The notes under the pieces are model-generated. The model made no database searches. It saw only the letters and a program-made list of their open reading frames with translations, and was not told the origin of the DNA. A stretch of DNA of 64,000 bases from Octopus vulgaris (Eukaryota): positions 13,144,001 through 13,208,000 of the forward strand of contig OX597838.1 of NCBI GenBank assembly GCA_951406725.2. The letters are read 5' to 3'. Shown one piece after another: positions 28,291-61,988 of this stretch. The first letter of the stretch is position 1. Every line of letters begins with the position of its first letter. The translations under genes and the position numbers were made by a program.

Positions 28291-28443
28291 CTCTTCTAAG
28301 ACATCATGTCATCGCCCATCTCCACTGTTACCACACTCCCCCATTGTGTCAGATGGAGCTCCGCATCCTCCTCTCGGCCCAGAGGAGGTTGTGCCACTGA
28401 GTTCTCGAACTATTGACACATATGCAGCGGCCATGTTCCAGAG
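28291..28443 (+). CDS. PXN: Probable paxillin-gene internal exon (SSKTSCHRPSPLLPHSPIVSDGAPHPPLGPEEVVPLSSRTIDTYAAAMFQR)
   Basis: ttttcttgtttccatccAG| … CAG AG|GTcaga; 153 nt, phase 2-2; Pro/Ser-rich; phase-compatible with the downstream exons leading to LD4. Confidence 0.6.
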
Positions 28444-29053: not shown

Positions 29054-29106
<53 letters not shown>

Positions 29107-29291
29107 TATATAGGAAAAATTAGATAGATAGATAGATAGATTTTATATATATAGATAGACAGACAAACAGTTAGGAGATCCAGCCGTAGAAACACTATTT
29201 GACTGGGCACTGTGAAGCCTTGGCTTTAGATCCGTCCAACCCATGCTAGCATGGAAAACGGACGTAAACGATGATGATGATGATGATAATT

Positions 29292-29332
<41 letters not shown>

Positions 29333-30621
29333 TAGTAATGTATGTATCTATGTGATGTATATGTGTTCATATACTTTTTAAAGCTGGCAATGGGCTGGAA
29401 AATACTTGTGGCAGTATTCCATGACCAAATGCTCTTCCTGTTGCAAACCATTACTTGTTTTCAAATAAACCACTGTATATCACTGGTCTTTCCATGTTGA
29501 ACTGCTGAACAAATTCTTCATGCTGCACATAAACAAATGGCTGCACGTATGTATATATCATCAACAGCATTTAATGTCCATATTTAATGCTGGCATGGGT
29601 AAGATAGTTTAAGGGACTCTAAGCCAGAGGACTGCATCGTGCTCCAATATCTGCTTTGGCATGGTTTTCTACAGCTGGATGCCCTTCCTTACACCTACCA
29701 CTTCGCAGCCTCTACTGGGTGCTTTTTTTTCTCAGCACCAGCATTAGTGAGGTTACCGTGCATCTTTCAAATCTACGATCCCTTTCAACTAAGTTGGGCT
29801 ACCACCACAGGGTCAGGGGCCATCTTTATGCTAGATGTGAGATTAAAATATGACAGAAGAGGCCAGGCATGCATATTTTATCTGAATGTTTATTTCCATA
29901 ATAATAATAATAATAATAATAATAAAATTATAAGCGGCAGTTTGCACAGAAATCTTCTCTTTCTCAGCACTTTCCTTTTTCATTTCACTGTCTTGAGATT
30001 GGTAGTCGGTAGAGGTGAGGAAGGCATTTGATCTTTTTAAAATTTGATTTACTTTTTGACAATTTCAGATTTTTATGTTGTGGAGTTTCTTCATTTCTTG
30101 ACTCTCGTCCGTCTTTTCCCAAACAGTAGTGATTACTGTTATCGTCATTGACATCATCTTGAGCTACATCACTGTCATCATCATAATCATTAACATGAGT
30201 ATCATATCATCATTATCATCATGACCATGAACATCATCATCACTTCATTAAGTCATCATTTCATTAAGTCATCATTTCATCATCATCATTAACATGAGTA
30301 TCATATCATATTGTTATCATCATCATCGTCCTCAATATTATCATCACTACCATGTCCATGAGCATCATCATCATCATCATCATCATCCTTGATGTTCTTC
30401 AACATCATCTGAAATTTGACTTATTATTAAGCAAGAGAAATATCCAAGAGAATTACTTACTAAGTATACTTTGCAGGAAGGTAATTAAGTTTGGGTTCAA
30501 ATCCTTAGTTTCATCGCTCCACCCTAACAACAACTACAATCAGTCAGAAAAATAAAATAAGCTACCAGGGTACACTGAGGCCGATTTTTTTTTTTTTTTT
30601 TTTTCAACTATACATATCCTG

Positions 30622-30805
30622 TGTCGGTGGCACGTAAAAAGCACCCACTACACTCATGGAGTGGTTGGCGTTAGGAAGGGCATCCAGCCGTAGAAACATT
30701 GCCAGATCAGACTGGGCCTGGTGCAGCCTTCTGACTTCCCAGACCCCAGTTGAACTGTCCAACCCATGCTAGCATGGAAAGCGGATGCTAAACGATGATG
30801 ATGAT
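30622..30805 (+). mobile_element. Family C repeat
   Basis: gtcggtggcacgtaaaaagcacccactacac…aaacgatgatgatg. Confidence 0.8.
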
Positions 30806-31721
30806 ATCACTCCCCTTATCAGCTTGTATTTGGGTGTAGATGTTAAAAATGGATTGGTTAGTGTATGGGGGCTTGTAGATGTCAATGTCCGTAGAGTACC
30901 ATACAGCACAAAATACCTTGTGGTGTTTCATTGGGTGATTCACTTTCATAGTTCTATGCCCCACCTTTTCTTCAGTTTGTTGCTCTGCACTGACATTAGA
31001 AATAGCAGTCGTGTACATTCCTTTAGCTTCTGAGTTTGAAATCCAGCCAGGTAGTGTGTGGGTCGGGGAAGATCATCTTCTGGCAAAAACCTTCCAAGCA
31101 TGGGTCAATATAAGCACTTGTCCAAATACTGGGTACGGGTTTAATTAACTACACCCTTCTACTAAAACTTGTGACTAGCATCCACCACTTCCACAACCAC
31201 CAGTACCATCTTCATCATCATCATCATTAGTAAGAGCACACATCTTTTTTTTTTCATGCCACACCAAATCATCATCATCATCGTTTAACGTCTGCTTTCC
31301 ATGCTAGCATGGGTTGGACTAAATCATTGTCATAGCAGAATGTATTAATTAGACACCATACCATAATTAGGACAGATAGTATCAACTTTCTATGGTTATG
31401 ACAGACAATATTTTGTAGGGGATACACCACACTTTGGTTAGAACTGACAGTATTTTCTAGGGAACACGCCATACTTTGGTTAAGGACACAATGGTCACAA
31501 AATGCATTTTCTGTCATCCTGTGGACAAAAATATTTAAAAACTCACTCAAGTTTTTAAAAATATGGTATTGTTTTATTTATTTGTTCAGTTTTTTTTTGT
31601 TGGTATCTATGTGTGTATATGTGTGTGTGTGTGTGTGTAGATGTTTAGTGCTGGTGTAGGCTGTGTGTGTTTGTCAGTATAACTCATGATTATACTGTTT
31701 GCATATGTTGTGGCTTAGGTT

Positions 31722-31800
<79 letters not shown>

Positions 31801-32221
31801 GTGTGTGTTTAGTTATGTGTGTGTTCGTATAATGCCCAAATAAGTGTGTACATATCAGTTCACATATGTGTATTCAGAATTTATACATGTTAATGTATGG
31901 TTTGTTTGTTTGTGTGTGTGTATGTATGTATGTATGTATGTGTGTGTGTGTGTGTGTGAGTCTATGTATACACACATTCACACACATGAGTGTATGTGTG
32001 TTTATTTGTAAAACTTGTGCACTTTTGTGCGTGTATGCACATATGTAATGTCATTGTTTTTGTTTGTGCATATATATCAGTTTTTATAAATACTCCAACT
32101 CTCTATTTTGTATATGTGTGTGTATGTGTATGTGATAGGCATAAAAGATGTATATTTTGACAAAAAAAAAAGTTCCAATATCTTTTGACTGTTTTTTTTT
32201 TGTTTTTCTTTATATTATCAG

Positions 32222-32234
32222 AATTGATGGGGAG
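32222..32234 (+). CDS. PXN: Predicted 13-nt microexon (R-I-D-G-E), phase 2 in and phase 0 out; an alternative donor at 32269 would give a 48-nt phase 2-2 exon
   Basis: Long U-rich tract gtttttttttgtttttctttatattatcAG, then GAG|GTAACA; exactly bridges the phase-2 donor at 28443 to the phase-0 acceptors at 32423 and 47744. Confidence 0.45.
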
Positions 32235-32422
32235 GTAACAACGGTGACCTCTGACCTTATCCGCCTGAGGTTGTTTGACCCAAACTGCGACTGGTCTTAT
32301 AACAGTTTCATCTACGTCCCCCAAAAAAACACCAAAACAAAAAGCAAAACTAAACAAAAAAAATCCCTCCCTGTCATCTAAAATTCTTCTTTGCACCAAA
32401 TTCTTCTATTTTGTTGGTTTAG

Positions 32423-35400
32423 CCAGCGGTCATGTATTCTATGTCGCAAACCACTTTAGCCGAGCGAGAGGGCCGAGAGAATCAAACACACAGCCGCAAT
32501 AGCTCGGCGCCGTTTGTTCGGACACATACATTGACCTCTGGCAGGATGGCCAGTTTCTCAGAAAATGGAAAGTTTTCGCATTTAGAGCACCGGTTGAATA
32601 ACACTTCACAGACCTCAACCGGGGTCGAGAATGATCAGAGTTGCTGCACTGACAGAAAGAGGGGGACTAAGACAACTGTGAGACATTCCAATTTCCAGTC
32701 TGAACTGGATTCTGTACTTAAAGCTAGATCAACTCCGATCAAGAAAGCACCACAAATTCCGGCCCTTAGAGGTAACCCTAACAATCCGAACTCTTCTTCC
32801 ACTTTTGAAACCATTCCTAACTCATCTGCAGGTAGCATTAGTAGTGTAAATAGGAAACAGTCACCAGCCCATAGCCTTTCAGATCAACCCGTATCATTTA
32901 GAGTAGCAGCCGCACCTGTACAAACGCATGCTCCTCCTTCACCCCTACCTCCTCCGCTTGACCTTCCCCCACCGCCGAATCTCCCCCGCCTCTCAGGGCC
33001 CCACCCACCAACTCGTAGTGCTTCATTGAATGTCAAAACAGGTCAAATGTCAAATAATTTGAACAGCTCCCCATTTCGGCAGTCTGGCCGTGCGAGGTCT
33101 TCAACGAAAGGGAGCCACACGAGTAGCATCTTGAGGTCTGGCTTTTTGGATACGTCAGATCTGGAAGACTGTCGGACACCCGAGATCAGTGAACTGAATT
33201 TCTCTATAGGACACGGTACACCCGTTGCATCAGAAAGCGGATCAAGAAGCATCCAACAGCCTGCCCCCTCAGTGGATTCAAGCAGGTTTGCCTTGACTTC
33301 AAAACCAACAAGCAAAATCGATGAGCCCATCCCAGTGTATCTGAAATGCCAGACTTGGTGCAACAAAATACCTGATGCTGGAGGCAAAAAGGCACCCGTC
33401 CCTCAACCAAAAATGAGTGAAGAATTGCGAAACATTGAATCATTTGAGTCAGCAATGTTGGACTGGTTTCAGACTATTACACAGGCAAATGACACAGATG
33501 ACTTAAGATCAGAAACGTCAGTGAGTTCTGTTGGTTCGCGCAAGTCCGAATGTCGGCTCCGGTCAATCATATCCAACCGTTTCCAAACATCAGACCAAAT
33601 TGAGAATGTTCTCACTGATTTACTGGCTGTCTCTGATCAATATGCACAGCTGACTGATTCAGAGTCTATAGGCCCAGCAGCTTTGGATCCTCTGGAATCA
33701 AGATATCGAACTTTTGGTCGCAAGCCTGGTTCAGCTCCCCGGTCCCGAATGTTCCGAAGAACTTCTGGATATCGAAGCGGGGATATGTCTGAAACAGAGT
33801 CCGATTCGGAGAGACCTGCACATCCAAGTAGTTACAAGACCGTCTTATCCGAACTTCAGGCAGTTTTGAGGAAAAGAAAAGTCACACCGAAAACGCCGTC
33901 TGTGGAATCTGGTTTGGGTTCCTCTGAAAATTCTATGAAAGCTACCTCTGAGACCATGTCACCACCTATTTCCAGGCAGAGCAAAGCTTCAACCCCTCCT
34001 GCTCCACCTCCTAAACCTCAGATGGCAAAGGTACATGAAGCTAACCCAGATTCAGTCCAAACAGCCAGTAAAACCCAACGACGGCCATTAGTGAATCCAG
34101 GTGATTTTCAAGTTCTGCTGGGTGAATTAAGCACAGCATGGTCTAAGCGTCTCAGAAGAATACGGAAAGCTCAGGTAGTCTCACAGAGAGGAGGGGAAAG
34201 TTCACTGTATGCCAACTTCCAAGGGTTCCGTGTCCCTGAAACTCTGGCCAGCGATTCATCATCAAAATATAAGAACTTTGAAGGTGTTCGGACTCCAGCT
34301 GAATCAATAGCTGAAGAAGATGCTGAAGATCTAAAAAATTATGAGAGTTTCGAAGCAAGAAAATCTAAATTTATGGCTAACAGCTCATCACGTCAATACG
34401 AAAGTGATCAAGAATATACAAGACCTTCGTTTGGCAGAATTCGGGGTCCTGGCATGAATAATGACATGGTGCGGCCCTCGAGGGTGTCTGTCAGAAAGCA
34501 AGCATTCCAGTCTCCAAATGAAAACCAGTCAAGGAGGAAACCTGATCTGGAGACGTGTTCACTCCAATCTTTTAGTGTCCGGCCTATTTCCAAAATGCAG
34601 AACAATTTTGGAAGTGCTGTTGTCAGTGATAATGAATTTGATGATCGAAATGAGGGTTTTCGGAGGCATCGGTCACGGCATAACCCTGAACAACGTCGTA
34701 TATGGCAAAACATTGAGTATATTCAGGTTAATTCACGACAGACTCCTTCAAGACATGGTTCTGAGCAAAGTCTTCCACAGCTAATGGCAGAATCACAGGG
34801 TCGGCCACGACGGCGTGAACGTACTCCCCAAATTGTTGAAAACCAGTCTTCCCAGCAGCCTCTTCAACATTCTCAGTCAAGAGATGATGTCAGTTGCTCT
34901 TCCCTTCACCTTTCTAGGGATGTTTCATCCAAACCAAAAGTGGATGAACAGATCCCCTCTCCAGAAGATAGCAAGGAACAACCAAAGCATGAATCTTCTA
35001 CAGTATTAACATTGTCCAATAGCAACCAAGGTCCAAAAGTGAAAGCAGTCAGTCAAAAGACAGACACTAAATCTGAATTTCATAAAAGAATTGAGCAAAT
35101 TTCAGCTGATGATTCCAATAGATCTGCTGACCCAGAAGCAAGGAAATTCTTGGTAGCTGGTATAACAGATGTATCAAAGCAGCTACAGTCTGCAATTTCT
35201 GAAGCAACAGAGAAACCAGCACCATTAAGTATGAAGTTATCTTCACCAGTTAATCAGAACATTGGACCTACCAAGGCACCAAACACTGATCATATGAATG
35301 TTGGGGAGGAAAAGGAGATTATTTTAGAAAGGCTACAGAAAATTGGAGATGCTAAATTTGTCAGCAAAGAAGAACTCCCAGATTTGCCAATGGATATTGT

Positions 35401-38400
35401 TAAAGCCAGTGCTATGATAGTAAAACCGTTAGTTACATCCAATCTGAAAAAATTAATTGGTGGTGGAAAGGAAGAAGAGAAACCAAAAAGCTTGGGAAAG
35501 TCTGAAGTAGTTCTTAATTTCTCTGAGACAGCTGTGCAAGAGCAGACAGTTCTGTCAGAATACGAAGACAATGTCATTTTGGGTGGCATTGAAGACAAAT
35601 TGGTTCCAGAAAAGAAACCAGATACTTCTGATGGATTTGATATGGATAACAGCAGAATCTTGTCTGAAATGAATGTTGACCAAAAGTTATCCCTGGAAGA
35701 ACCTAGTGAAAACGAGTCTGTTATCAGTAAGGCCAAAGTTGAAATTACATCTACAAAAACTACAGCCGTCACGGTGCTTCAGAGTTCAGTCTCTGAAGAA
35801 ACCAAAGCAAGTGATACTGTATTAAAGAGTGAAGGTATTACTGAAGATCAACAAGCAACAGATGGTTTGGTGGAAGATGCTGAAGATCAAGTGACTTCAT
35901 CAAATATCTCCATCAGTTTAGACCATCCTGTCATAGGAATGGAAAATGTTGAAGAAAGTGACCAAGAAACAAAACACAAATCTGAGACCGTTCTCTTCCT
36001 TCCTTATACAAAAGAACCACAACAGAACGAAGTCAGTGAACCTCAACCTGTCACTGTAGACAGTTTGAAGTCATCAACTGTTGTCTTGTCTTCAATAAAC
36101 ACAGAACATTCCTTACCTTCTGAAAATCTCCTCATTGATTCCTTAACATACGAGAACAGTAAAGAACAAACTGAGAACTTAGAGGTAACACCTGAAGAAG
36201 CGAGTAGTATAGAAGTTGTACCAATGTCACAAGACCTGCCAGTGTTACAAGATGTGCCAGTGATACAAGATGCCAAGGTTTCTTCAGCACAAATTGAATT
36301 AGGCCAATCAGAAGAAAACATTGAAGAAATAACTAATGTGTCTGTGACATTATCTCTGGGTGAAAATTCTGATTTAAAGAAGCCAGAAGAGTCAGTGCTT
36401 AAACCAGAAGAATCACTGGTTATACCAGAAGAATCACTGGTTAAACCAGAAGAATTACTGGTTAAACCAGAAGAATCACTGGTTAAGCCAGAAGAATCAC
36501 TGGTTAAACCAGAAGAGTCACTGACTAAGCCGGAAGAGTCACTGGTTAAACCAGAAGAATTACTGGTTAAACCAGAAGAATCACTGGTTATACCTGAAGA
36601 ATCACTGGTTAAACCAGAAGAGTCACTGACTAAGCCGGAAGAATCACTAGTTATACCAGAAGAGTCACTGACTAAGCCTGAAGAGTCACTGGTTAAACCA
36701 TATGAAAAAGATGAAGAAAAGGAATCTTTGGATGTGGAACAAATTTCTTGTGAGCAAGAAGACCATCAGATTGAACATGACCAACTTGTTGAAGAGAAGG
36801 GTTTGAAGAAGAGTGAGGCAGAAGGAAGCAAACAAGAAACATCTGATATCTCTGAGATAATGGATACGTTTGATGACTTGCAGAAGGAATTGAGATTAAT
36901 GGAATCTTCTTTGGAAGAAAACTCTGCAAAAGGTCCAACGATAGAGAGTATGCTTCAGGAGGCATTGGTAAAGACGTATTCAATTGATGTTCTGTCACAG
37001 TTGAATCAATCTGATGAGGATAGCTTTGAACCAGGGATAATCTGTGGTCAGTGGATTAAGAAGGGGACAACAGTTAGATCTGAAAGTTCAGTGGTGAAAG
37101 AGGAATTCAAGCATGAAACTCAAGTCATAGATTTTGGGGAAGAATTGGTAAATGCTGGAGACCTGGCAGATTCTGTTTCAGAGCAATTAGACAGTGGTGA
37201 AGGTGAGTTGAAAACTGAAAATCTTGGTTTTGTAGAGCACGAGGAATTTGATTATGTTCAGAAGATCCCTAGTGATTTCATAGAAGATGAAATCTATGAC
37301 AATGTTCCAAGTGTAACAGAGGGTTCCATCCCATTTGTATCTGCTGAATCAAAATCACCTGATGCATTGCTAATGAAGGAGGAAGAAGAACATACAGAAA
37401 AACTGACAGAAAAAATGATTCCCAGTAACATAATGTCTATGGAGACAGTAACATCTTCGAGAACATCATTTGTCTTGGAGGAAACATCTGTTCCAGCTGT
37501 ATTAGAGTTTGAGGCATCCATTTCAGGGCCAACCAATTTGGAAACCTCCGCTCAGGCAACAGCAGGACTTGAACCAACGTATACCTTGACACCATTAGAG
37601 CAAGACAGTTGTATTGTGGAACCAGCTCCAATGGTAACTCATAGAGGGATGGAGCCACCTACAGAGGTGTCAACAAGGCTGGAGTCATACATAGAGTCAT
37701 CAGCAGACCTGGAGTCGCATATACAAACATCAATAGACCTGGAGTCATGTACAGAAACATCAGTAGAATTTGATTCACCTTCAGTAGAATTACCAGAAAA
37801 ACAGCAAGCACCCATCGATGCATCTGCAGAGCTGGAGAGGCTTAGAATGGCACTGGCACAGATGGAGCCATCAAGTGTGATACCTCCACAGATGGAGCCA
37901 TCGTCTGAGGCACAATCACAACTGGAGGCTCTTAGAATGGCACTGGCACAAATGGAACCATCAAGCGCCACACCTCCACAACTGGAGTCCCCAAGCGCAA
38001 TGCCTCCACAACTGGAGCCGTCGTCTGAGGCACAATCACAACTGGAGGCTCTAAGAATGGCACTGGCACAAATGGAGCCAGTAAATGCAACGCCTCAGCA
38101 ACCAGAGCCATCAAACGTCACGCTTCCACAGTTGGTGCCATCAGCCACGGCACAGTCACAACTGGAGAAACTTAGTATGGCACTGTCACAAATGGAATCA
38201 TCACCTGCAGCTCTCCCACGGCTGGAGCCATCGGCTGTGGCACAGTCACAGTTGGATAAACTTAGTTTGGCACTGTCACAAATGGGGTCATCATCAGTGG
38301 CGTCTTCACAGCTGGAGCCAAGAACAGTGGCATTATCTGAATTGGAATCGTCCATTGAGGCTGTACCAACGGAGTTGCAGCTGTGTACCATGCAGGTAAC

Positions 38401-41400
38401 AGAGGTGGAGTCGTCTACCACAGGAACAGTGGGCGTGTTCACTTTAAAAGAGCAACAGGAGATTCCTGAAATGGAAAAATCTCTTCCATTAACGGATGAG
38501 GTTGTTACTGAAGCTGCACTTTTGGTTGATGCCTCAAACAGTGAACCGCTTGAGATTCCTGTTGAAATCCATGCTGAGGTGTCTGTTGCTGATGAGCAGT
38601 TAGTACCAGATTTGGAACTGACCGAGACACAACCCGTCTCAGCAACTCCCCTTCATAAACTGCCCCAGGAATCCACTGACAATGATCCCTTGTGCAGCTC
38701 TGAAGTAACAGTAACAAATCAAGCTGTTCTGGATGAACGTCTGACCCCTTGTTATCCTGAAACACGTGATGTGCAGAATGTTGCAGAACAGTTGGTGCCA
38801 GAAGTGGCAACGCATCAGGCAGAGAAGTTTCCATTGTTTACAATAGAAACTGCACAGCCATCATATGAACCCGCAGACTTTGTGGCACCCTCTGAAATAT
38901 TAATAGGTGAAGCCGAGTCTGAGACACAGGAAGTGTCAAAGGCACTTGAGGAGCCTGAAATATCTAACTTGGCAGCAAATGCACAGGAAGGGGTTGCAAA
39001 TGATTTTAGCTTTGAGACTAAACATGTAACAGATGAAAGTAATTATTTAGAAAGAATTGATATAATCAGTCGAGATCTTCACAATTTAATGCCAGTTACC
39101 AAAGTTGACATTGCTGAAGAATTAACTGGCAATCTCTCTGATAGTTCTGATGAGATATTTCAAGACACACTTTGCGACAATTCTCCTATGTTTCGCCGAA
39201 AATACACGGAAATTGTTCGTGCAGAAATTGGAACCAGAATGGAAACACTTCACACTTATCAGAGAGACTTATTGTTGGAAATTGAGGAAGATGATGATGA
39301 TGAAGAATTCGTTGAAGCTGAAGGAGAGGCTATGTGCTGGGAGTCTCTGAAAGAGTCTTGGAATATCCAGGGAACTTTGGAAACTCAAACAACTGTAGAG
39401 AAGTGTGATGATGATGATGATCGATCTCTTCCGACCATTTATGAAGCAACTGAAGACCGAACGGAAGCTGTTGTTAGCAAGACTGTTGATGTCTTTGAGG
39501 GATTGGAATCAGCTGCTAATCAGTGTGTTGAGAACCTTGAGAAAACCTCCAAAGAATTGGCTCTGGCAGAAGCTGATGAAATATCCATCTATTATGGGGC
39601 TGAAGTGACCGATTCTGCTGAGTGTAAGGAAGAACACGATGTCCTTGACAATGCTGTCATGGTAGACGATGATAAAGAACTTGTTGAAGCACTTCCTAGT
39701 TGTGAAGAACACGATGTCCTTGACAATGCTGTCGTGGTAGAAGATGATAAAGAACTTGTTGAAGCACTTCCTAGCTGTGAAGAACACGATGTCCTTGACA
39801 ATGCTGTCGTGGTAGAAGATGATAAAGAACTTGTTGAAGCACTTCCTAGCTGTGAAGAAATAGAAGATGAATCAAAGACGGTTCAGCTAAATGAAATGAA
39901 ACGATCTGAAGCAATTACTGACTTTGGTAAAATATCTGAGAAAGAAACAGTCACAGTGAAAGAGTTTGAAGAATTTTCTGGTGAGCTATCATCTGAAACT
40001 CCTCTCATGAAATCTGATGAGAGTTTTGGAAATCTAGTGCAATACTTGGAGTCAGATAGCATCAATGATCTTGAGGAATTTGAGCGTATTGAATTGGCAT
40101 GTGAGGAACTTTCTAAGAACAAGCTTGTAGATCTCCAAGACATGTCAAACAAAGATGAATGTGTTGAGAAGACTGAAAAGCCTCACAAAGCTAATGGTTT
40201 AGAGGAATCTTCAGACTCAGACATTATGAAGAGCCAGCAGATAATTTTAACCAAGGAATTAGAAGTAGATGAGGGTGATGAATCTGCTGATTTAATGGTT
40301 GATGCCAGTGATGCAATTAACAGAGTGAAGACCAAAGTCAGTGAACAAAGATCTGTGTCTCTTCTCCAGAATAGCGAGGAAGTTGAAGTGGAAGATCAGA
40401 TTGATTATTATGAGTATATGAGATTAAGGAGCTGTGAAGAAGAACAAGTTCATGCTGCTCTCCACAGTGAGGGTGGATTATCTGAAAATGGTGAGATTAA
40501 TAACAAGGATGGAAAGGTGGAACATGGAAGAAAAGTTGCTCAGAAAATATCTGTTGTTACTTCTGATCAACATGTAGAAATAGCTGCATCTACTGTAGCG
40601 GGTGATGCATCGTTTGCAGATTATTGCAGTGAAGATGTCTCTGAGAATATTACCAGAAGTGTTTGTGTTGACAATGTTGATGTGGTGAAGGACGTCACAA
40701 TGGAGTCTTATTCCAAAGATAGTGAAAATGGTGAGGTACTGAAAATCGATGCCTTGAACTCCACCAATCTTTCTATTAATGCTAATGAGATATCTATCAC
40801 TACAACTACAGAAGCAAATTCTATTGAAGAATCCATCAGAGCAGAAAATGGCTTGTCTGAAAAGACAGGTTTTGTTACATCAGAAGAAAATTCCACAGAG
40901 ATGGAACTGCTGGAAATCTCTGCCAAACAAGAAACATCTTTGTTGGATGACAGCAGCAATTTAAGTGGTGAAACTGTGAAAGATAACCAATGTGATATGG
41001 TGGTTGACATCAGTGTCATTAACAGTGAAGTTAAAGAAGAACAGAAGGTCCCATGTCCAGTTGATTTGTCTGGTGTTGAAACACAAACCCTGGTGATCAA
41101 TGAAAATATGGTTTTGGAATTGCCAGAAATTGATGCTGACTTGAATGTCAGTTCTGAACAGTCTTCACCAGAAAGCAGTTCTTCCGTTTCAATTTCCCAA
41201 ACTGCTGACAAAGAATTCCAACAAGACCAGCTTGAAGATTTGAAAGACAACACTTCAGAATTGTCTCAAATCCAAGAGAATAGTGAGACAACAGCCGTTG
41301 CCACCACAAAGAAGAAAAGGAGGAGGAAGGCGAAGAAAAACAAAAACAACAAAGATAAACCTGAAACTCTTCTCATGGAAGACCAGGAAGTTTTGGAAAA

Positions 41401-44293
41401 TGGTGATGCCATAGAGCAGGATGAAATGACTGAGGAATATTCTGGAGAGTGTCTCTTGATTGAGGACTCTGTTGAAGAGTTGTCTGTACAGAAGGTTTGT
41501 TATTCCCAGTCTAGTACAGAAGTTCATTCCACAGTTGCTACAGCTGGGGCTGAATTTACTGAATCATTGACTTTAGAAAGTGATGAGTCAGTGGAGCATT
41601 CTAGACATTCACCAGTTGAGGTCTCTGCAACTTTTTCACTGTCTGATATTGTGAAAGACATTTCAAAGAATGAAGAGGAAATAACAGAAGAAAATACTTC
41701 AAGAGAACAACATCAAGCGAATCAGGATAAGGTAACTGAAACAACTTTAGAACAAATAGCCAATCAGAATGATACAGAAAATCATGAACAAACGGTAGAA
41801 ACAATTTCACAGCAGCAAACTCAAATTACCAGTCATGATACGATAACAGAAGTAACTCTACTGCAACAATCCGGTCAGGATGAGACATCACAACAGCTAA
41901 CCATTCAGGATGAAACATCACAACAGCTAACCATTCAAGATGAGACATCACAACAGCTAACCATTCAGGATGGGACATCACAACAGCTAACCATTCAGGA
42001 TGAAACATCACAACAGCTAACCATTCAGGATGAGACATCACAACAGCTAACCATTCAGGATGAGACATCACAACAGCTAACCATTCAGGATGGGACATCA
42101 CAACAGCTAACCATTCAGGATGGGACATCACAACAGCTAACCATTCAGGATGAAACATCACAACAGCTAACCATTCAGGATGAAACATCACAACAGCTAA
42201 CCATTCAGGATGAAACATCACAACAGCTAACCATTCAGGATGAAGCATCACAACAGCTAACCATTCAGGATGAAACATCACAACAGCTAACCATTCAGGA
42301 TGAAACATCACAACAGCTAACCATTCAGGATGAAGCATCACAACAGCTAACCAATCAGGATGAGGTAACAGAAATGGTTACACAAAAACTAGTCAGTCAC
42401 ACAGTAACAGAAACAATTTCACAAGAACTGACCAATCATGAGTTAACAATCTCAGAGCAATTAGCCAGCCATAATGAAGTGACAGAAACCGATTCACAAC
42501 AATTACGGCAGCTAACGAATCATGATGAAACAATGCAAACAGTTTCCTTAGACTCTACGGCTGTTTCAAGAGATGAAGGCATTTCTCAGACAGAGTCATC
42601 TAGTTCTGTCGTTGAAGGGAAGAAGCAGAAAACTGTGACTTTTGGTACAACTGAAACTGTTCAAAACATTGATAATCGTTCTCTTCATAAAGGCTATGAA
42701 GAAGCAACAGAGTATGATTCAAATTCCTTGCTAGATACATCCCACTGTTTCACAATATATTTCCGTGAAAATTCTGGAGATATACCAAAGTCAAAACTTC
42801 CTTCATTGTCTGCAAGTCGAGGACAAAACTCTTTGCAACCACTTGCAGAAGAATCATCTAAACAAATTCAAAACAGAATTGACATTAATAACAAATTAAA
42901 TTCACGTTTTCCTTCCAAGATTCCTCGTCCTTTCAGTAAAACCAATACTTCTTTGACACAGTCATCATCTTCCAGCTTTTCTGATTCTTACATGAAAAAA
43001 TCAAATTTCCTCTCTGATTTACCAGATTCTTCAATTGATGATTATTTCCCTCGTAGAGAGGAATCCAAAGTGAACAGTACTGATGTAATTAAACCAGAAA
43101 TGCCACCACCATCATCACATTTTACCATTTCAAATCAAATGGAATCCAGTGAGGGCCCTCCACCTGTTCCACTACCTTTTAGGATGCTTTATGATGAGAG
43201 TGAGCCACCACCGATACCATCGAGGGAACTCAGAAGTTTGGAAACTGAACCGGAAAATCTTCCAACCAATTCTATTGACACCACAGTGCCACCTGGTGGC
43301 CAAGATGGTGTCACTTTGGTCAGAGAGGAACAGCAGCAAGATAACACTGCCAACAATTCTGGTAACTCAGACAACGGTGTTCAGTCTTCAAATAAATCTG
43401 CAATCTACCAGCAGAAACGGTTTAGGGACTTAAAGCATTTCTCAAGGATCAGTAATTTGACCTACAATGAAGTCTTAGAACTCGAAGAGCATGAGAAAGT
43501 AGAATATCTGAAAGATTCTAGCACTGAGCAGCGCATGCAGGATTTACGGGATTTCAGCCAATTGTGTTCAACAGAATCTGTTTTCTCCCGAAAATCTGGC
43601 AGTTCTGATTCAGGAATTCAGACCAATTTACGAGAGTCCAAGCATTCCAGCTCCTCATTATCACTCCAGACTTCGAGGACGTCAGGTTCAGGTTATCGTA
43701 AAACCAAAAGGCTCTCAGACTCTGCTGTCTGTGTTGATGGAACTGAAGAATTTGATCAGTCAATGTCCACATCCATCCGTCAAACTAACGGAGAGACTGA
43801 AAGGTCCAACACATTGCAGTCTGTGGGCAGACAAAGTCGAGAACCTATTGTTTACGGAAGGATCAACAAATCTAGAGAAATGGCCCGTAGCTGTTACAGC
43901 CTTGATTACCAATTCAGATATGGTTCAAAAGGATCTTCAGATTTGGCCACCACTGCAGACAGGTCTTCTTATCATGGAAGCAGCCGAAATGATTCTGAAA
44001 CTAACTTAACAGTTCAAAGGTTACAGGATGCTGGCATGTGCACGTCAAATTTTACACCCGTCAAAAAGAACTTTGACGACAGTCAGTCATTTATGTCCAC
44101 GGTGTCATTCCTTAAGTCTAACGAAGACTCAAATCTATCAGTAAATGATACTGAGACCGAATCTATTTATGAGGACGTTTCTCTCTACTCAAGTTCAGAA
44201 TGTGACACGGCGTCAATAAAACGCGAGAAAAAATCCAAAAAGTTGAGTTCAAGGTTAAAGAAATTTGGTAGCAAATTGAAGTTTTGGAAATAA
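32423..44293 (+). CDS. Giant uninterrupted coding exon (3953 aa from Met 32432): acidic, largely low-complexity, repeat-rich protein; giant alternative terminal exon of the paxillin locus or nested intronless gene
   Basis: 11.9 kb stop-free and free of the microsatellites and SINEs that saturate the flanks; tandem repeats all have periods divisible by 3; acceptor ttcttctattttgttggttTAG at 32422 (that TAG is also the in-frame upstream stop); TAA at 44291-44293. Confidence 0.9.
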   Translation, partial: PAVMYSMSQTTLAEREGRENQTHSRNSSAPFVRTHTLTSGRMASFSENGKFSHLEHRLNNTSQTSTGVENDQSCCTDRKRGTKTTVRHSNFQSELDSVLKARSTPIKKAPQIPALRGNPNNPNSSSTFETIPNSSAGSISSVNRKQSPAHSLSDQPVSFRVAAAPVQTHAPPSPLPPPLDLPPPPNLPRLSGPHPPTRSASLNVKTGQMSNNLNSSPFRQSGRARSSTKGSHTSSILRSGFLDTSDLEDCRTPEISELNFSIGHGTPVASESGSRSIQQPAPSVDSSRFALTSKPTSKIDEPIPVYLKCQTWCNKIPDAGGKKAPVPQPKMSEELRNIESFESAMLDWFQTITQANDTDDLRSETSVSSVGSRKSECRLRSIISNRFQTSDQIENVLTDLLAVSDQYAQLTDSESIGPAALDPLESRYRTFGRKPGSAPRSRMFRRTSGYRSGDMSETESDSERPAHPSSYKTVLSELQAVLRKRKVTPKTPSVESGLGSSENSMKATSETMSPPISRQSKASTPPAPPPKPQMAKVHEANPDSVQTASKTQRRPLVNPGDFQVLLGELSTAWSKRLRRIRKAQVVSQRGGESSLYANFQGFRVPETLASDSSSKYKNFEGVRTPAESIAEEDAEDLKNYESFEARKSKFMANSSSRQYESDQEYTRPSFGRIRGPGMNNDMVRPSRVSVRKQAFQSPNENQSRRKPDLETCSLQSFSVRPISKMQNNFGSAVVSDNEFDDRNEGFRRHRSRHNPEQRRIWQNIEYIQVNSRQTPSRHGSEQSLPQLMAESQGRPRRRERTPQIVENQSSQQPLQHSQSRDDVSCSSLHLSRDVSSKPKVDEQIPSPEDSKEQPKHESSTVLTLSNSNQGPKVKAVSQKTDTKSEFHKRIEQISADDSNRSADPEARKFLVAGITDVSKQLQSAISEATEKPAPLSMKLSSPVNQNIGPTKAPNTDHMNVGEEKEIILERLQKIGDAKFVSKEELPDLPMDIVKASAMIVKPLVTSNLKKLIGGGKEEEKPKSLGKSEVVLNFSETAVQEQTVLSEYEDNVILGGIEDKLVPEKKPDTSDGFDMDNSRILSEMNVDQKLSLEEPSENESVISKAKVEITSTKTTAVTVLQSSVSEETKASDTVLKSEGITEDQQATDGLVEDAEDQVTSSNISISLDHPVIGMENVEESDQETKHKSETVLFLPYTKEPQQNEVSEPQPVTVDSLKSSTVVLSSINTEHSLPSENLLIDSLTYENSKEQTENLEVTPEEASSIEVVPMSQDLPVLQDVPVIQDAKVSSAQIELGQSEENIEEITNVSVTLSLGENSDLKKPEESVLKPEESLVIPEESLVKPEELLVKPEESLVKPEESLVKPEESLTKPEESLVKPEELLVKPEESLVIPEESLVKPEESLTKPEESLVIPEESLTKPEESLVKPYEKDEEKESLDVEQISCEQEDHQIEHDQLVEEKGLKKSEAEGSKQETSDISEIMDTFDDLQKELRLMESSLEENSAKGPTIESMLQEALVKTYSIDVLSQLNQSDEDSFEPGIICGQWIKKGTTVRSESSVVKEEFKHETQVIDFGEELVNAGDLADSVSEQLDSGEGELKTENLGFVEHEEFDYVQKIPSDFIEDEIYDNVPSVTEGSIPFVSAESKSPDALLMKEEEEHTEKLTEKMIPSNIMSMETVTSSRTSFVLEETSVPAVLEFEASISGPTNLETSAQATAGLEPTYTLTPLEQDSCIVEPAPMVTHRGMEPPTEVSTRLESYIESSADLESHIQTSIDLESCTETSVEFDSPSVELPEKQQAPIDASAELERLRMALAQMEPSSVIPPQMEPSSEAQSQLEALRMALAQMEPSSATPPQLESPSAMPPQLEPSSEAQSQLEALRMALAQMEPVNATPQQPEPSNVTLPQLVPSATAQSQLEKLSMALSQMESSPAALPRLEPSAVAQSQLDKLSLALSQMGSSSVASSQLEPRTVALSELESSIEAVPTELQLCTMQVTEVESSTTGTVGVFTLKEQQEIPEMEKSLPLTDEVVTEAALLVDASNSEPLEIPVEIHAEVSVADEQLVPDLELTETQPVSATPLHKLPQESTDNDPLCSSEVTVTNQAVLDERLTPCYPETRDVQNVAEQLVPEVATHQAEKFPLFTIETAQPSYEPADFVAPSEILIGEAESETQEVSKALEEPEISNLAANAQEGVANDFSFETKHVTDESNYLERIDIISRDLHNLMPVTKVDIAEELTGNLSDSSDEIFQDTLCDNSPMFRRKYTEIVRAEIGTRMETLHTYQRDLLLEIEEDDDDEEFVEAEGEAMCWESLKESWNIQGTLETQTTVEKCDDDDDRSLPTIYEATEDRTEAVVSKTVDVFEGLESAANQCVENLEKTSKELALAEADEISIYYGAEVTDSAECKEEHDVLDNAVMVDDDKELVEALPSCEEHDVLDNAVVVEDDKELVEALPSCEEHDVLDNAVVVEDDKELVEALPSCEEIEDESKTVQLNEMKRSEAITDFGKISEKETVTVKEFEEFSGELSSETPLMKSDESFGNLVQYLESDSINDLEEFERIELACEELSKNKLVDLQDMSNKDECVEKTEKPHKANGLEESSDSDIMKSQQIILTKELEVDEGDESADLMVDASDAINRVKTKVSEQRSVSLLQNSEEVEVEDQIDYYEYMRLRSCEEEQVHAALHSEGGLSENGEINNKDGKVEHGRKVAQKISVVTSDQHVEIAASTVAGDASFADYCSEDVSENITRSVCVDNVDVVKDVTMESYSKDSENGEVLKIDALNSTNLSINANEISITTTTEANSIEESIRAENGLSEKTGFVTSEENSTEMELLEISAKQETSLLDDSSNLSGETVKDNQCDMVVDISVINSEVKEEQKVPCPVDLSGVETQTLVINENMVLELPEIDADLNVSSEQSSPESSSSVSISQTADKEFQQDQLEDLKDNTSELSQIQENSETTAVATTKKKRRRKAKKNKNNKDKPETLLMEDQEVLENGDAIEQDEMTEEYSGECLLIEDSVEELSVQKVCYSQSSTEVHSTVATAGAEFTESLTLESDESVEHSRHSPVEVSATFSLSDIVKDISKNEEEITEENTSREQHQANQDKVTETTLEQIANQNDTENHEQTVETISQQQTQITSHDTITEVTLLQQSGQDETSQQLTIQDETSQQLTIQDETSQQLTIQDGTSQQLTIQDETSQQLTIQDETSQQLTIQDETSQQLTIQDGTSQQLTIQDGTSQQLTIQDETSQQLTIQDETSQQLTIQDETSQQLTIQDEASQQLTIQDETSQQLTIQDETSQQLTIQDEASQQLTNQDEVTEMVTQKLVSHTVTETISQELTNHELTISEQLASHNEVTETDSQQLRQLTNHDETMQTVSLDSTAVSRDEGISQTESSSSVVEGKKQKTVTFGTTETVQNIDNRSLHKGYEEATEYDSNSLLDTSHCFTIYFRENSGDIPKSKLPSLSASRGQNSLQPLAEESSKQIQNRIDINNKLNSRFPSKIPRPFSKTNTSLTQSSSSSFSDSYMKKSNFLSDLPDSSIDDYFPRREESKVNSTDVIKPEMPPPSSHFTISNQMESSEGPPPVPLPFRMLYDESEPPPIPSRELRSLETEPENLPTNSIDTTVPPGGQDGVTLVREEQQQDNTANNSGNSDNGVQSSNKSAIYQQKRFRDLKHFSRISNLTYNEVLELEEHEKVEYLKDSSTEQRMQDLRDFSQLCSTESVFSRKSGSSDSGIQTNLRESKHSSSSLSLQTSRTSGSGYRKTKRLSDSAVCVDGTEEFDQSMSTSIRQTNGETERSNTLQSVGRQSREPIVYGRINKSREMARSCYSLDYQFRYGSKGSSDLATTADRSSYHGSSRNDSETNLTVQRLQDAGMCTSNFTPVKKNFDDSQSFMSTVSFLKSNEDSNLSVNDTETESIYEDVSLYSSSECDTASIKREKKSKKLSSRLKKFGSKLKFWK
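36383..36700 (+). repeat. Coding tandem repeat, 21-bp / 7-aa unit PEESL(V/T)(K/I), ~15 copies
   Basis: ccagaagaatcactggttaaa repeated. Confidence 0.95.
37823..38350 (+). repeat. Coding repeat built from 30-bp subunits, with five (S)QLE(A/K/R)L(R/S)MAL(A/S)QME-type helices at ~90/120/120/90-bp spacing
   Basis: Seen in DNA (cacaatcacaactggaggctcttagaatggcactggcacaaatggag) and in translation. Confidence 0.9.
39627..39858 (+). repeat. Coding tandem repeat, 75-bp / 25-aa unit CEEHDVLDNAVVVEDDKELVEALPS, 3 copies
   Basis: Near-identical copies. Confidence 0.95.
41876..42365 (+). repeat. Coding tandem repeat, 30-bp / 10-aa unit QD(E/G)(T/A)SQQLTI, ~16 copies
   Basis: caggatgaaacatcacaacagctaaccatt repeated almost perfectly. 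Confidence 0.95.
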
Positions 44294-44837
44294 TTGATGA
44301 AGCAGGACGAAGAAACATAAATCTGAAGAAGGAAAGCACAAAACAAAGAAAAAACAAAACAAAACAAACAAACAAAGAAAATATTGTACAAAATTATAAT
44401 ATAAAAATGATAATTCTTTTAATGAATTAAAAACACTGGTTTACCATGGAGCTGAGTTCTAAACCGATAAGGAAAAGAAATTGGGGTGAAAAAAGAAAAA
44501 TTCTTGATTCATTGTAGCTTTTACATATACTTACCATTTTTTAACATGAATCATATGTGAAGGTTTCTTTTTTGGGGTTTTTTGATGAAAATGTTGCTTC
44601 TGTGGCAGAAAATATTTGGGCAATCTTCATAGTTGATTTTTGATATAGATAATGTTTAATTTTAAAATTCACCATTTCCAACTCCTGTTTAAAAGCAACA
44701 ACAACAACAACAGCAACTGCAACAAGTAACTGCTACATTTGTTTGTATATTGAGCTTCTGAAGTTGTCATTAAAACTCCATCAATGGAAAAAATATTTTT
44801 TAAAAAAATACACAAAAAAAAAAACATGATGCAATGA

Positions 44838-45202
44838 AATAAACAGAAAGAAATGAGGCTTACATAAACTGTTTGATTAACTCTTGCACACTTGTCATCC
44901 CTTCCCCCCCCCCACACACACACACGCACACCCTACAGCCATCCATCCAAACTTTTTTTTCCCCCCATACCTCTATCTACCAACTTTATATGCTATGACA
45001 CACCCTTGTATAGGCCTGTTGTGCTGTGAATTTATTCCAAGTATTTCGGTTTAAAGCTAAATAAAGGGGCTGTTTGAATTGAAGCATGTGTAAATTTAAT
45101 CTTTACACACACACACACACACCACACGTGAAAACGAAAAAAAAAAAAGGAAACTACCTTGGCACCTTTGATATGAAATATACATACATGAATACATGTG
45201 TA

Positions 45203-45244
<42 letters not shown>

Positions 45245-45280
45245 CATACATACACGTGTGTGTGTATTTGTGTCAATAAA
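44838..45280 (+). terminator. Candidate polyadenylation signals downstream of the giant ORF
   Basis: AATAAA at 44838-44843, 45060-45065 and 45275-45280; AT-rich context makes these weak evidence. Confidence 0.3.
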
Positions 45281-45517
45281 TATCTGTAGAATCAAGTCTG
45301 TTGGAAGGAAAAGATAAGAGGGATGATGACTGAGTTATCCCTTCACTGATGAACAGTTACCGCATGTATGGGTTGGGTAGATTGCTAGCTGTCTTCCTGT
45401 GTGGGGTGGATGGGTGATTGTATAAAGATGAATTACTGTTTTGCATGTGTACGTGTATATGCTGGCTGTCTTGAGTAAATTCCTTCTTACTTAGTTGACA
45501 GGCCCTAAAAATTACAG

Positions 45518-45550
<33 letters not shown>

Positions 45551-45810
45551 GTAATAATAATAATAAACCAGTTTGTGTTCAGGAAATTGTTGGCTGAAAA
45601 GAAAACCCATATCTGAATTGGGATCAATAATAACAATGGTAAAAGAAAAAGTATATGAAATAAAAAGATTTAAGCCCAAAAGAAATTAAACCCCTCCCTC
45701 TCTAGGATATCAACCAGCTATGCTACAAGATTTCTGGCTTGGCTTTTAGATCAGTTATAAACTGTAGGTATCTTCCTTTTACACCCCTGTCTTAGCCTCA
45801 GGTCATACTA

Positions 45811-45870
<60 letters not shown>

Positions 45871-46135
45871 ACTTACTCTCTCTCTCTCTTTATCTATCTA
45901 TCTCTCTAGCTAGCTATCTATCTATATCTTGATTGATCGATCTTATCTCTCTATCTTTCTGTCTGTTTACGTTTGTTAACTGTAATGAAAGGGGGGAAAA
46001 AAAAAGAACTCAATACTGGATATTGAGGATAGATAATTTAATTCAGTCAACTGGGAACTAAGACTGGCTGAAACTCTTGAGTATCGTCAAATGTTGGCAT
46101 GTTTGAACCATATTTGAACCACAGGTCGACCAGAA

Positions 46136-46325
46136 TGGTCAGCTAGTTCGTTATGGCATGGTTGAGTCAGTTAGTCTGCTAAATGTTATGGCGAGGTCAC
46201 CCAGTTAACTGGACATTATGTTGTGTCTGGCTAGTTCGAGGCGGTCACCTAGTTGACTGAACATTATAGAGAGGTCACCTAGTTCACTGAACATTATTGA
46301 GAGGTCAGCTAGTTCACTAAACATC
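46136..46325 (+). repeat. Degenerate 30-bp minisatellite whose unit contains AGGTCA-nnn-AGTTCA (DR3)
   Basis: gaggtcacctagttcactgaacattattga; perfect DR3 at 46272-46286 and 46302-46316, degenerate copies at ~46136, 46194 and 46242. Confidence 0.75.
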
Positions 46326-46839
46326 TTAGTTTAGCTGGCTGTTCATTACTGAATATTACAATATGTCTGGCTGATTTGCAAGAATGTTTGGTCTGGTCAA
46401 CCAGTTCCCTGAACTCACTGGGCAATGTTGTATAGCCAGTGGCTTCATTGAACACCTTAACAATGTCCATATATATATATGCTGAACCCTGTACAGCTAT
46501 TTTGAGACTTATCCTGAGTACTCTTGTGATGTGTCCACTGGATCTTGTGAGACGGGTTGTACAGCACTGCTCAACATTATGTTCTGTCCAGCATGTTCAC
46601 CAGATTTTGTGGGCCATTCAGTGGTGTTCACCATAAGAACAGAAGGAGAAGGACACACAGACACAACACCAATGAATATTAGAGAAGCAAGCCTTTACTG
46701 CATGATCTTATCTTTTATATATAATATATCTTATTTTAAAGTTATGTCCTAGGTAGAAGAGGGGGTTCAATAGGAAGGTTTGCCCATAACAGTAATATTA
46801 TTAGCAGTAGTAGCAGCAGCAGCAGTAGTAGTTGTTGTT

Positions 46840-46875
<36 letters not shown>

Positions 46876-47570
46876 AAATACAATTTAAATAAAAACAAAC
46901 GTAAAATTTTAGAAATGGTTAATCTTTATTATTCTCATCATCATCATCATCGTCGTCATCATCATTGTCATCATTGTCCACTGATTCACCACCACTGCCG
47001 CTATCATATCCCTCGCTCATACTGACAAACAACTTGCTGCATATTTCTGCTGCAGTCTTTATCTACCTTCCTTGATTCTGGGGGGTTTTTTGGGGTTTTT
47101 TTTTAAACCCCAATTTATTAGTGGGATGGAGTTGTGAGATAGAAAGAGAGCAAAGGAAAAGAAAGAAAGAAAGAAAGAAAGGAAGGAAGGAAGGAAGGAA
47201 AGAAAGAAAGAGGGGGTAATGGAGGATACTACTTTCTCTCCTTACTTTAATTGAATCTATTTTAGATTTTAGTAACGGAACAGTGAGTGGGGGGGGGAGA
47301 GTGCGCAAGGAGCTCAGAGGATTTAGGATCTGATCTGGAACCTCTCCCCCACATTGAAGGGGGCTTACTCTTGTAAAGCAGGGCACCCTATAGAATTCTT
47401 ATTCTGCTGTGTGTGTGCAAGGGGGTGGGGGGGGGGGCAGCGGAGAAGAGTGTGGGGTGGGGGTTAGATTGTTGTGCCTGAATTGGTCCTAAGATGTTAG
47501 AAGTTGTTGTCGGTTTCTATTTATACACCATACGTCTATGGAAACGGTTATTAGATAGGGTGGCAGGAAT

Positions 47571-47604
<34 letters not shown>

Positions 47605-47743
47605 AAAGAAAGTAAAAAAAGGAAAACAAGAACAGATTTAAAACCAAAAAATACAAAATTACAAGTGGAATAAAATAAAGCGAAACAGGGAAAATCAAAA
47701 ACACCACCCGACTGCGATATTTCTTTTCTTTGCCAACCCTCAG

Positions 47744-47811
47744 AACAACAGCAGCAGTCTTGAGTGTGATGATGGTGGTGGCGGCGGTGGTGGTGGTGGT
47801 GGAGACTTGGG
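47744..47811 (+). CDS. PXN: Probable paxillin-gene exon ([23 protein letters not shown]), phase 0 in and phase 2 out
   Basis: atttcttttctttgccaaccctcAG| … TGGG|GTAAGC, strong sites at both ends; 68 nt; 13 + 68 = 81 nt restores frame between 28443 and 57387. Confidence 0.55.
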
Positions 47812-54927: not shown

Positions 54928-55133
54928 GGTATATGTTGGAGGGTTCATATTTGAGGGTGACAAATATTTAATATTTCCGTTCTGTAAACATTTTGGTTGA
55001 AGTGACTCCTCATTTTTCTTTTCAGTAATTAATCTTTCTTGTTTAATTATTCTAACATTAAGTATGTTATCTATATATTTATTTATAAGCGTGTTTGTGT
55101 TACCAATTGATTCATTGCTTGTTTTATTATTTA

Positions 55134-57386: not shown

Positions 57387-58313
57387 GCCTCCTCCACCAC
57401 TACCACCATCTTCACTTCCTCTTTCTCAACCTTTCCCCGGGTTTCCCCACATGGAATCTGCAGTGACGAAGCAAAGCATGCAGTCCTCCACTTCGGACGG
57501 CAACTACAGTAGTTTCCAGTCATCGGAGACGGTCAAATCATCTTCGGTGTCAACCCATAGCACATCAGCAGATGACGCTTGCAGTACGACTGCATTCACG
57601 GGCGGCCTCGTTGACGTCCCATCTGCCTTTGTGCCTGTCCATCCTCTCGGACCAGCTCCAGTGATTTCCGAGCAAATGGAATCAAAGAGTTCCCAGAGTT
57701 ATTCGAAGCTGGAGAGCACCGACTCGAAATCTGAAGTGATGCAGAAGAGTGAACAGTCGACGATGGAGCGGTCAGAGAAATATGCCATGTCTTCATCGAC
57801 ATTGCAACAACAACAACAACACCAACTGCCGCAGCTTCAACAGCCCCCCTTGATGATGATGATGATGAGTAACAAAATGCAGAGTGAGGGTCAGGGCCAG
57901 GGCCAGGGCCACGGCCTGCCTGTTGCGGACATGAGCGCTCCGCCGTTCCCTGTCCAGCAGAGCTACGAGACAAAGTCCGAGCAGAGTCACATCTACAAGA
58001 AGATTGAGCACAGTGACGTGTCCCAGGGTTTTCCCTGCCCACCGCCACCGCCCCTAGCTCCTTCAGCGCAGCCGATCCCGCTGCAGATCGGCACTGGTCA
58101 AGCGGACAGTTATTATCAGCAGCAGCAGTATCAGCAGCAGCAGCAGGACTCCAGCCCTGGTTACCAGGTGTTGTCTCCTTTCCAGAGCTCGCAACACTAC
58201 GAGTCTAGTGTCTCCGAACAACAACAACAACACCAACAGCAGCAACAACAAGAGGTTGTCACCTCTTCCATGCAGCAACACTCCTCTACATCTGCTTCGG
58301 ACAATTTCCAGAG
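57387..58313 (+). CDS. PXN: Large paxillin-gene internal exon (309 codons; Pro/Ser/Gln-rich, PPPPLPPSS…SDNFQR)
   Basis: ccttcctttttttgtcAG| … CAG AG|GTTAGA; 927 nt, phase 2-2; GC-richer than flanks; splices in frame to the LD4 exon. Confidence 0.75.
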
Positions 58314-61792: not shown

Positions 61793-61988
61793 CCGACAGA
61801 TGGCAGGGGTCAACTCAGCCGCTACAACTGTGGGTCAGCACGCACAGATCGGGGGCCAGGTCTATGGCCAAAATGCCACGTATATACAGCAGCCTCTCTA
61901 CCAGGAAACACCAATGATGTCCCCGCAAACAGCTTCTACCGCCACTCGAGAGCTGGATGAGTTAATGGCTTCACTCTCAGAGTTTAGG
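61793..61988 (+). CDS. PXN: Paxillin exon containing the LD4 motif (RQMAGVNS…TASTATRELDELMASLSEFR)
   Basis: tctcttctctcctacAG| … AGG|GTAAGT; phase 2 in and phase 0 out; ATRELDELMASLSEF is nearly identical to vertebrate paxillin LD4 (SATRELDELMASLSDFK); the exon ends at the position where vertebrate beta/gamma inserts begin. Confidence 0.9.

Follow-up and report, generated by a model that had tools for sequence, protein, structure and literature searches.

Very large exons that encode an extended, disordered, repeat-containing region are known from the giant ankyrins (gAnkB/gAnkG and Drosophila Ank2), in which the exon is spliced in frame to the domains of the host protein; in Drosophila these exons are 3'-terminal, according to the accessible text of the source (PMC7401806). 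Exon 15e of Drosophila Zasp52 belongs to a LIM-domain adaptor locus and is an internal in-frame cassette of 4,429 nt that encodes 1,475 disordered residues, as given in the available part of that report (PMC13521563). Nested genes, units that lie inside an intron of a host gene, offer a different comparison: 71.5% of same-strand nested genes in Drosophila are intronless (PMC5174743), and CPNE1/RBM12-type pairs likewise have a coding unit within an intron of a host gene that is read in the same direction (PMC2568002). Paxillin, the host in the present case, is recognised by LD motifs of the form LDXLLXXL (excerpted text of PMC3135480).

Here we analysed a stretch of 64,000 nt from Octopus vulgaris (assembly GCA_951406725.2, contig OX597838.1, positions 13,144,001 to 13,208,000 of the forward strand), referred to below as the window, in which a giant open reading frame (ORF) lies within the paxillin gene (Table 1). 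The ORF shares with the giant ankyrins a very large exon and an extended disordered, repeat-containing product, but the octopus RNA has a stop before the ORF, and no sequence similarity to the giant ankyrin exons was found. Zasp52 exon 15e is about a third of the size of the octopus ORF, and its closer parallel is with the octopus paxillin cassettes A, B and C rather than with the giant ORF, which is no cassette of this type. Assignment to the ankyrin/Zasp52 type of giant-exon isoform was therefore rejected, since the multi-kb disordered exon is present but the in-frame join to host domains is absent. The resemblance to the same-strand nested genes (PMC5174743) lies in a unit with one coding exon inside a host intron, although the octopus gene is far larger. 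Our preferred reading, which we consider likely, is that the giant ORF is a separate gene, nested on the same strand in a paxillin cassette intron, with its own 5' exon and one coding exon.

Table 1. Features of the giant ORF and of the host paxillin locus (positions relative to the window)
Feature	Position	Strand	Basis or remark
Paxillin first coding exon	about -230 kb		mapping of paxillin proteins
Paxillin LD1 exon	-45.7 kb		mapping of paxillin proteins
Paxillin LD2 exon	-44.5 kb		mapping of paxillin proteins
Paxillin LD3 exon, 196 nt	-42672 to -42477		mapping of paxillin proteins
Paxillin cassette exon B, phase 2-2	28291..28443	+	mapping of paxillin proteins
5' part of exon before ATG, 210 nt	32222..32431	+	contigs and frame reading
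52-codon open frame, phase 2 (as in the paxillin cassette donors)	32223..32381	+	ends 50 nt before giant ATG
Latent 188-nt mini-intron, GAG|GT ... TTTAG|C	32235..32422	+	sequence reading
Single-exon CDS	32432..44293	+	3,953 aa; computed 438 kDa and overall pI 4.5; orthologues known
Most deeply conserved head block, aa 397-583	33620..34180	+	53% identity to P0015; predicted amphipathic helices, low confidence
7-aa coding repeat x15, KPEESLV type	36383..36700	+	TRF and translation
Coding repeats of 20-40 aa	37863..38346	+	TRF
25-aa coding repeat x3	39629..39859	+	TRF
10-aa coding repeat x16, QDETSQQLTI type	41875..42363	+	missing or far shorter in O. bimaculoides
Two SxIP-type motifs: SKLP aa 3454, SKIP aa 3495	42791..42925	+	basic Ser-rich context
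81-aa block identical in O. bimaculoides	43406..43648	+	overlaps predicted three-helix module
Polybasic predicted C-terminal helix	44210..44290	+	sequence and structure prediction
3' UTR, at least this long	44294..47800	+	contig cover to end of aligned stretch
Paxillin cassette exon C, phase 2-2	57387..58313	+	mapping of paxillin proteins
Paxillin LD4 exon, phase-2 acceptor	61793..61988	+	mapping of paxillin proteins
Paxillin LD5 and LIM exons	82-90 kb (LIM exons 83.8-90.2 kb)		beyond window

The giant ORF is real, expressed, under selection and an orphan, and it had been predicted automatically before in two species. The frame is free of stops from 32423 to 44293 on the forward strand (3,956 codons from stop to stop), whereas the remaining five frames across the same interval hold 118-435 stops each, and the probability of so long a stop-free run arising by chance is about 1e-145. 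A stop-free ORF of 3953 aa had been claimed from the letters alone, and that length is indeed obtained from the ATG at 32432. The same reading had described the ORF as free of the repeats that fill the introns, which also holds: only 11 of the 138 tandem-repeat (TRF) rows in the window fall inside it, the period of every one of them is divisible by three, and no microsatellite is among them.

Conservation of the ORF is clear within Octopus. The O. sinensis orthologue LOC115224205 (XP_036369070-76) is 94% identical over 100% of the query, with 94-100% identity per 250 aa, and the O. bimaculoides protein (XP_014777632, 'titin-like'; A0A0L8GVT1) is 84% identical over 77% in the best local alignment, with 86-95% per 250 aa; its model begins 205 aa further into the protein, perhaps as an effect of annotation. 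The automatic name of the latter was not followed, as no Ig/Fn3 Pfam match places the giant protein in the titin family. Disruption of the frame in close relatives together with lack of expression had been named in advance as what would speak against function; instead no break in the frame was seen in any of three Octopus species, these two included, and contigs taken to be RNA cover the start and the tail of the ORF. Selection is also visible in the variants listed within the ORF, of which 20 of 34 are synonymous against 22-28% expected (p < 2e-4; 40 of 209 rows seen); seven lie in tandem repeats and are perhaps misplaced copies, and without them the count is 17 synonymous to 10 not. Among the listed variants of the rod, 10 of 20 are non-synonymous. 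Listed indels are in frame in three of three cases inside the ORF versus one of nine outside (12 of 28 rows seen). When aa 1-900 were compared with 1.84 billion representatives, two matches were returned: the protein of O. bimaculoides and a 198-aa record without a name (P0015; E 3.5e-37 to aa 397-583), the end of which, in our own reading of its sequence, resembles this gene in a shifted frame. Genome searches for paralogues of the head, of the tail module and of the UTR found none, so that the gene is single-copy in these searches, and metagenome scans gave no related locus.

The seven O. sinensis models X1-X7 (six distinct sequences) all begin at the same ATG, in a gene of their own in RefSeq. 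They differ only by whole repeat units in the arrays of 7 and 10 aa, a pattern that points to artefacts of alignment and not to real splicing.

Octopus paxillin proteins, mapped onto 264 kb of the locus, show the host to be a paxillin with five LD motifs and four LIM domains. Cassettes A1, A2 (also mapped), B and C are alternative paxillin exons. The giant CDS lies wholly within one host intron, between B (ending at 28443) and C (beginning at 57387) and on the same strand, in agreement with the position among paxillin exons that the sequence-only reading had assigned to it. All five donors of the LD3 exon and of A1, A2, B and C are of phase 2, as is the LD4 acceptor. Giant exon sequence was found in none of the 13 paxillin-type proteins examined, and all 12 named paxillin proteins have an identical N-terminus.

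Several features of the host locus are worth recording in their own right. The first coding exon of paxillin (G000:C25:12913873-12913905) precedes exon 2 by about 184 kb, and with the four phase-2 cassettes, spread between -30 kb and 58 kb, the octopus paxillins range in length from 664 to more than 1,000 aa; several of them are auto-named 'Zasp' or 'TGFB1I1'. Read through its donor, cassette B (28291-28531, forward strand) encodes a hydrophobic run of 20 residues before a stop at about 28531, and could from its sequence be a candidate tail-anchored, LIM-less paxillin terminus; this end is used by none of the database isoforms examined and has no Pfam match. Cassette C is likewise open beyond its donor to a nearby stop (57387-58341, forward strand), and the same eight bases immediately precede the donor in B and C. 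In two paxillin models (P0017 and P0018) an unrelated downstream ORF replaces the last LIM exon (about 93.1-93.6 kb), probably a mobile-element or annotation join.

Evidence on the transcript comes from public sequencing runs. The stretch was present in 20 of the 24 runs listed, from nine studies and none annotated as RNA, and the other four contain next to none of its sequence words, which says nothing about tissue. Contigs from four runs (X3, X5, X12 and X20) were aligned to 27900-47800, an interval that ends before exons C and LD4; assembled contigs drop rare variants, and the comparison took in 15 of the 21 joints and 24 of the 519 loose ends. In X3, X5 and X12, which come from three studies, a single contig extends from 32221 to about 36150-36460, is continuous across 32235-32427, and has an unaligned upstream overhang at 32221 of 158, 196 and 144 letters, respectively. 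Since the contigs leave the genome at this point, and since CAG|32222 is preceded by a pyrimidine tract, we take 32222 to be a used splice acceptor. The splice-like overhang is also the main reason, together with small assembly sizes, for which we infer that these runs are RNA. The exon had been thought to begin at a used acceptor at 32423, but the contigs of three of the four runs cross that position and exit at CAG|32222; they also pass the acceptor-like TAG|32423 (phase 0) and CAG|32427 (phase 1) unbroken, and the longest listed 5' piece of X20, which starts at 32381, crosses 32423 without interruption.

The position of this acceptor decides how the ORF is read. The part of the exon before the ATG contains a 3-codon uORF at 32227 and an in-frame TAG at 32420-32422, and no donor phase joined to 32222 reaches the giant frame, the three phases meeting stops after 1, 4 and 52 codons. 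With the used acceptor upstream of an in-frame stop, the giant ORF must start at its own ATG; a start codon of its own, preceded in the transcript by a stop in the same frame, is expected of a nested gene and is observed here. Nor do the downstream sites suit the phase of the cassettes: a phase-2 donor joined to 32423 or 32427 runs into a stop after 11 or 24 codons, and in-frame joins are possible on paper only from exon 2 (phase 0) or exons 1/3 (phase 1). The latent mini-intron, the removal of which would make one continuous frame of the phase-2 frame and the giant ORF, is retained in the contigs seen.

The overhangs bear on what lies upstream. Contig building breaks where sequences branch, and the contigs studied here break even at single variants (X12 at 36147/36149, X5 at 40515/40517). 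An overhang of 144-196 letters without such a break, in three runs, suggests that the upstream exon is not common to other abundant transcripts. Its reach grows with depth, from 144 letters at 22x through 158 at 26x to 196 at 91x, as would be expected at the 5' end of a transcript, if three runs are any guide. Neither the shape of the donors nor repeat masking nor CpG content allowed the upstream exon to be placed, and none of 60 candidate donors could be assigned to it. The first contig of X5 has one inserted letter within 32221-36432 that does not appear in the listed rows and would be a frameshift if inside the ORF; it probably lies in the A-tracts before the ATG.

At the 3' end, cover of the tail reaches 44223 in X3 and 44227 in X20, about 70 nt short of the stop, while X5 and X12 have no cover at 42508-44499 and no joint across that gap among the joints listed, where filtering can drop records. 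Contig cover up to 47800 indicates a 3' UTR longer than 3.5 kb, and AATAAA candidates occur at 44838, 45060, 45275 and on to 50309. Two loose ends, at 41336 and 47661, fall in A-rich low-complexity sites and have no match in the 264 kb of the locus; they were taken as chance. Rfam gave no match in 27900-51000.

From these data we can propose how the nested gene would be expressed. One or more dedicated 5' exons of at least 197 nt, located outside 27900-47800 and presumably served by a promoter of their own, would be spliced to 32222; the ribosome would pass the short uORF and the in-frame stop and initiate at the ATG at 32432; and the one 11.9-kb exon would encode the entire protein and continue into the long 3' UTR, with no coding sequence in common with paxillin. 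RefSeq also models the giant ORF and paxillin as separate genes.

The sequence-only reading had favoured a giant paxillin isoform that bears LD motifs and lacks LIM domains, and had offered an uncharacterised, nested intronless gene as the alternative. The former is not supported, given the acceptor upstream of the in-frame stop, the mismatched phases and the absence of any fused paxillin-giant protein among 6,893 candidates of 2,175-6,923 aa; of the latter, nesting is the best reading and stands, but the gene has a 5' intron and is not intronless. A minor or tissue-specific fused form, which we regard as very unlikely, could arise by three routes: LD1-LD3 plus four residues through the mini-intron (about 4,240 aa), exon 2 joined to 32423, or exon 1/3 joined to 32427. 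Such joins are in frame on paper, the pyrimidine tract at 32423 is good, rare variants would be lost from contigs, and giant disordered exons are known in ankyrins and Zasp52, by the accessible text of both sources (PMC7401806, PMC13521563); however, all four runs cross 32423/32427 unbroken in the pieces listed, and neither the joints seen nor the protein candidates include such a fusion. A different link to paxillin is suggested by the 52-codon frame that opens behind 32222 and stops at 32379-32381. Openness of this length is found at 7% of 5,404 non-coding starts and in 5% of shuffles. The end of the LD3 exon is the only one of the eight known paxillin donors that predicts a contig start at 32221, and the length of that exon compares with 197 upstream letters in X5. 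The open phase-2 frame and this sole fit together leave a modest chance that a paxillin transcript is bicistronic or that a fused form occurs at low level: with LD3 spliced to 32222, one mRNA would carry a short LIM-less paxillin and the 438-kDa protein, and removal of the mini-intron would fuse both. Taken as a strictly bicistronic transcript, this is somewhat less probable and in our view unlikely. The first product would be LD1-LD3 with a 52-aa tail (about 336 aa), and the giant ORF would be translated by re-initiation or leaky scanning 50 nt downstream, but this would require contigs from three studies to pass unbroken through the branch point where LD3 ends, though X3 has cover near cassette B, and would leave them no reason to end at three different points in or just before the LD3 exon. 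The separate RefSeq genes also count against it, as does, as weak evidence, the absence of the 52-aa tail among 11 candidate proteins of 92-2,000 aa. The 52-aa peptide has no homologue among proteins of that size range and no Atlas or Pfam match, and both the peptide and the exact giant ORF (four start variants) are absent from a collection of 15 billion sequences.

RBM12 has a single coding exon. The octopus ORF resembles it in lying on the same strand as a host gene and inside one of its introns, as far as the accessible text of PMC2568002 goes, and a CPNE1/RBM12-type pair might be imagined in which a non-coding 5' exon or an internal promoter of the paxillin locus feeds either product. We give this little credence: the first coding exon of paxillin predicts a contig start at 32220 rather than 32221, a common exon should break the contigs, and the named paxillin proteins have but one N-terminus. 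Scarcely credible, finally, is the view that the ORF is transcribed yet without function or in decay, or that it is an artefact of repeats. The low complexity, the lack of a known domain, the even split of the rod variants and the unplaced insertion in X5 could be read in that way, but they stand against a frame kept intact in three species, a synonymous excess, a distant relative with 53% identity and a single copy. We thus return to the nested gene as the reading that best accommodates the data.

The architecture of the product agrees with the basic head, acidic rod and Ser-rich tail read from the translation, with a pI of 9.6 for aa 1-850, 4.1 for aa 851-3450 and 6.7 for aa 3451-3953. Structure prediction of pieces of the head and tail (270 and 302 of 3,953 aa) gave mean pLDDT values of 41 and 46. 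The head model shows scattered single helices, and the tail model a module of three helices and a further helix at its end; in the tail, pLDDT is 56-84 across the first 60 residues of the model; the chain is thus predicted to be mostly disordered. Pfam gave nothing above cut-off on the giant protein, sub-threshold matches falling on repeats, a PDB sequence search with the head gave no match, and a fold search with the tail model found generic helices only (best Z 5.1, rmsd 4.9, 60 aligned; no Foldseek E <= 0.001). Membership of the paxillin family was rejected: no LIM or Paxillin Pfam domain was found, no in-frame paxillin splice was observed, and in an LD profile the best window of the ORF scored 13.8, versus self scores of 25.8-33.4 for the five host LDs and a median shuffle maximum of 14.6. 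The most conserved helix of the head looks WH2-like or LD-like by eye. For WH2 there was no PF02205 match, the ORF was absent among 10 genome matches, and an HMM built from four octopus WH2s placed no window of the ORF above shuffles; Atlas gave 0.79 to Cobl-like clusters, which serves as a lead only.

The tail contains two SxIP-type motifs where 0.065 would be expected (p 0.0025, post hoc). O. bimaculoides retains both, and the net charge nearby is +2 and +5. Motifs of this kind bind EB proteins, and in SLAIN2-type +TIPs SxIP-like motifs lie in basic, serine-rich disordered sequence (accessible text of PMC3115796); judged from its sequence, the octopus tail would match these proteins in the motif only and not by homology. 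An RVxF motif was at chance level (p 0.82) and two acidic tyrosine motifs were borderline (p 0.06), and neither was retained. We tentatively suggest, with somewhat less than even confidence, that the product is an extended cytoskeletal tether or spacer. The basic head might bind cortex or actin-adhesion partners via its conserved amphipathic helices, the acidic, repeat-expanded rod would set distance, the tail could reach microtubule plus ends through the two SxIP motifs, and the basic end helix may bind membrane or the microtubule lattice.

We found no description of this locus, and none of paxillin together with a giant exon and an isoform, in a literature search the scope of which ended short of most subscription journals and all supplements; octopus proteome or transcriptome tables in the latter could list the gene. 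Five orthologue accessions were mentioned nowhere that we found, and their names are only automatic. A separate gene is thus already predicted in the orthologue records, whereas its 5' exon, its nesting and its motifs are undescribed in the searchable literature. As a nested gene it would belong to known classes but be an unusually large single-exon member of them, and it is an orphan without a family, known so far only from Octopus and one unnamed distant record. Its position among paxillin cassettes on the same strand may put it in competition with paxillin splicing and termination, and a 438-kDa disordered tether could bear on the muscle or nerve architecture of cephalopods. Should the LD3 exon prove to be the upstream exon, the locus would be a rare bicistronic or switchable adaptor gene.

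Other elements were noted in passing. A near-perfect hairpin element of 294 bp at 50748-51041, with arms of about 143 bp, a 9-nt loop and flanking TA runs, is MITE-like, and copies of a tandem SINE-like unit of 175-185 bp occur at 22708-23070 and 54394-54932. Decayed sequence at 27340-27650 may, judging by its motif, be a remnant of a Tc1/mariner transposase. Elsewhere in the genome, a tandem cluster of more than 10 divergent actin-like genes, some with stops, lies at about 12.58-12.88 Mb of G000:C27, and an intronless divergent actin gene is present on C8 (L026).
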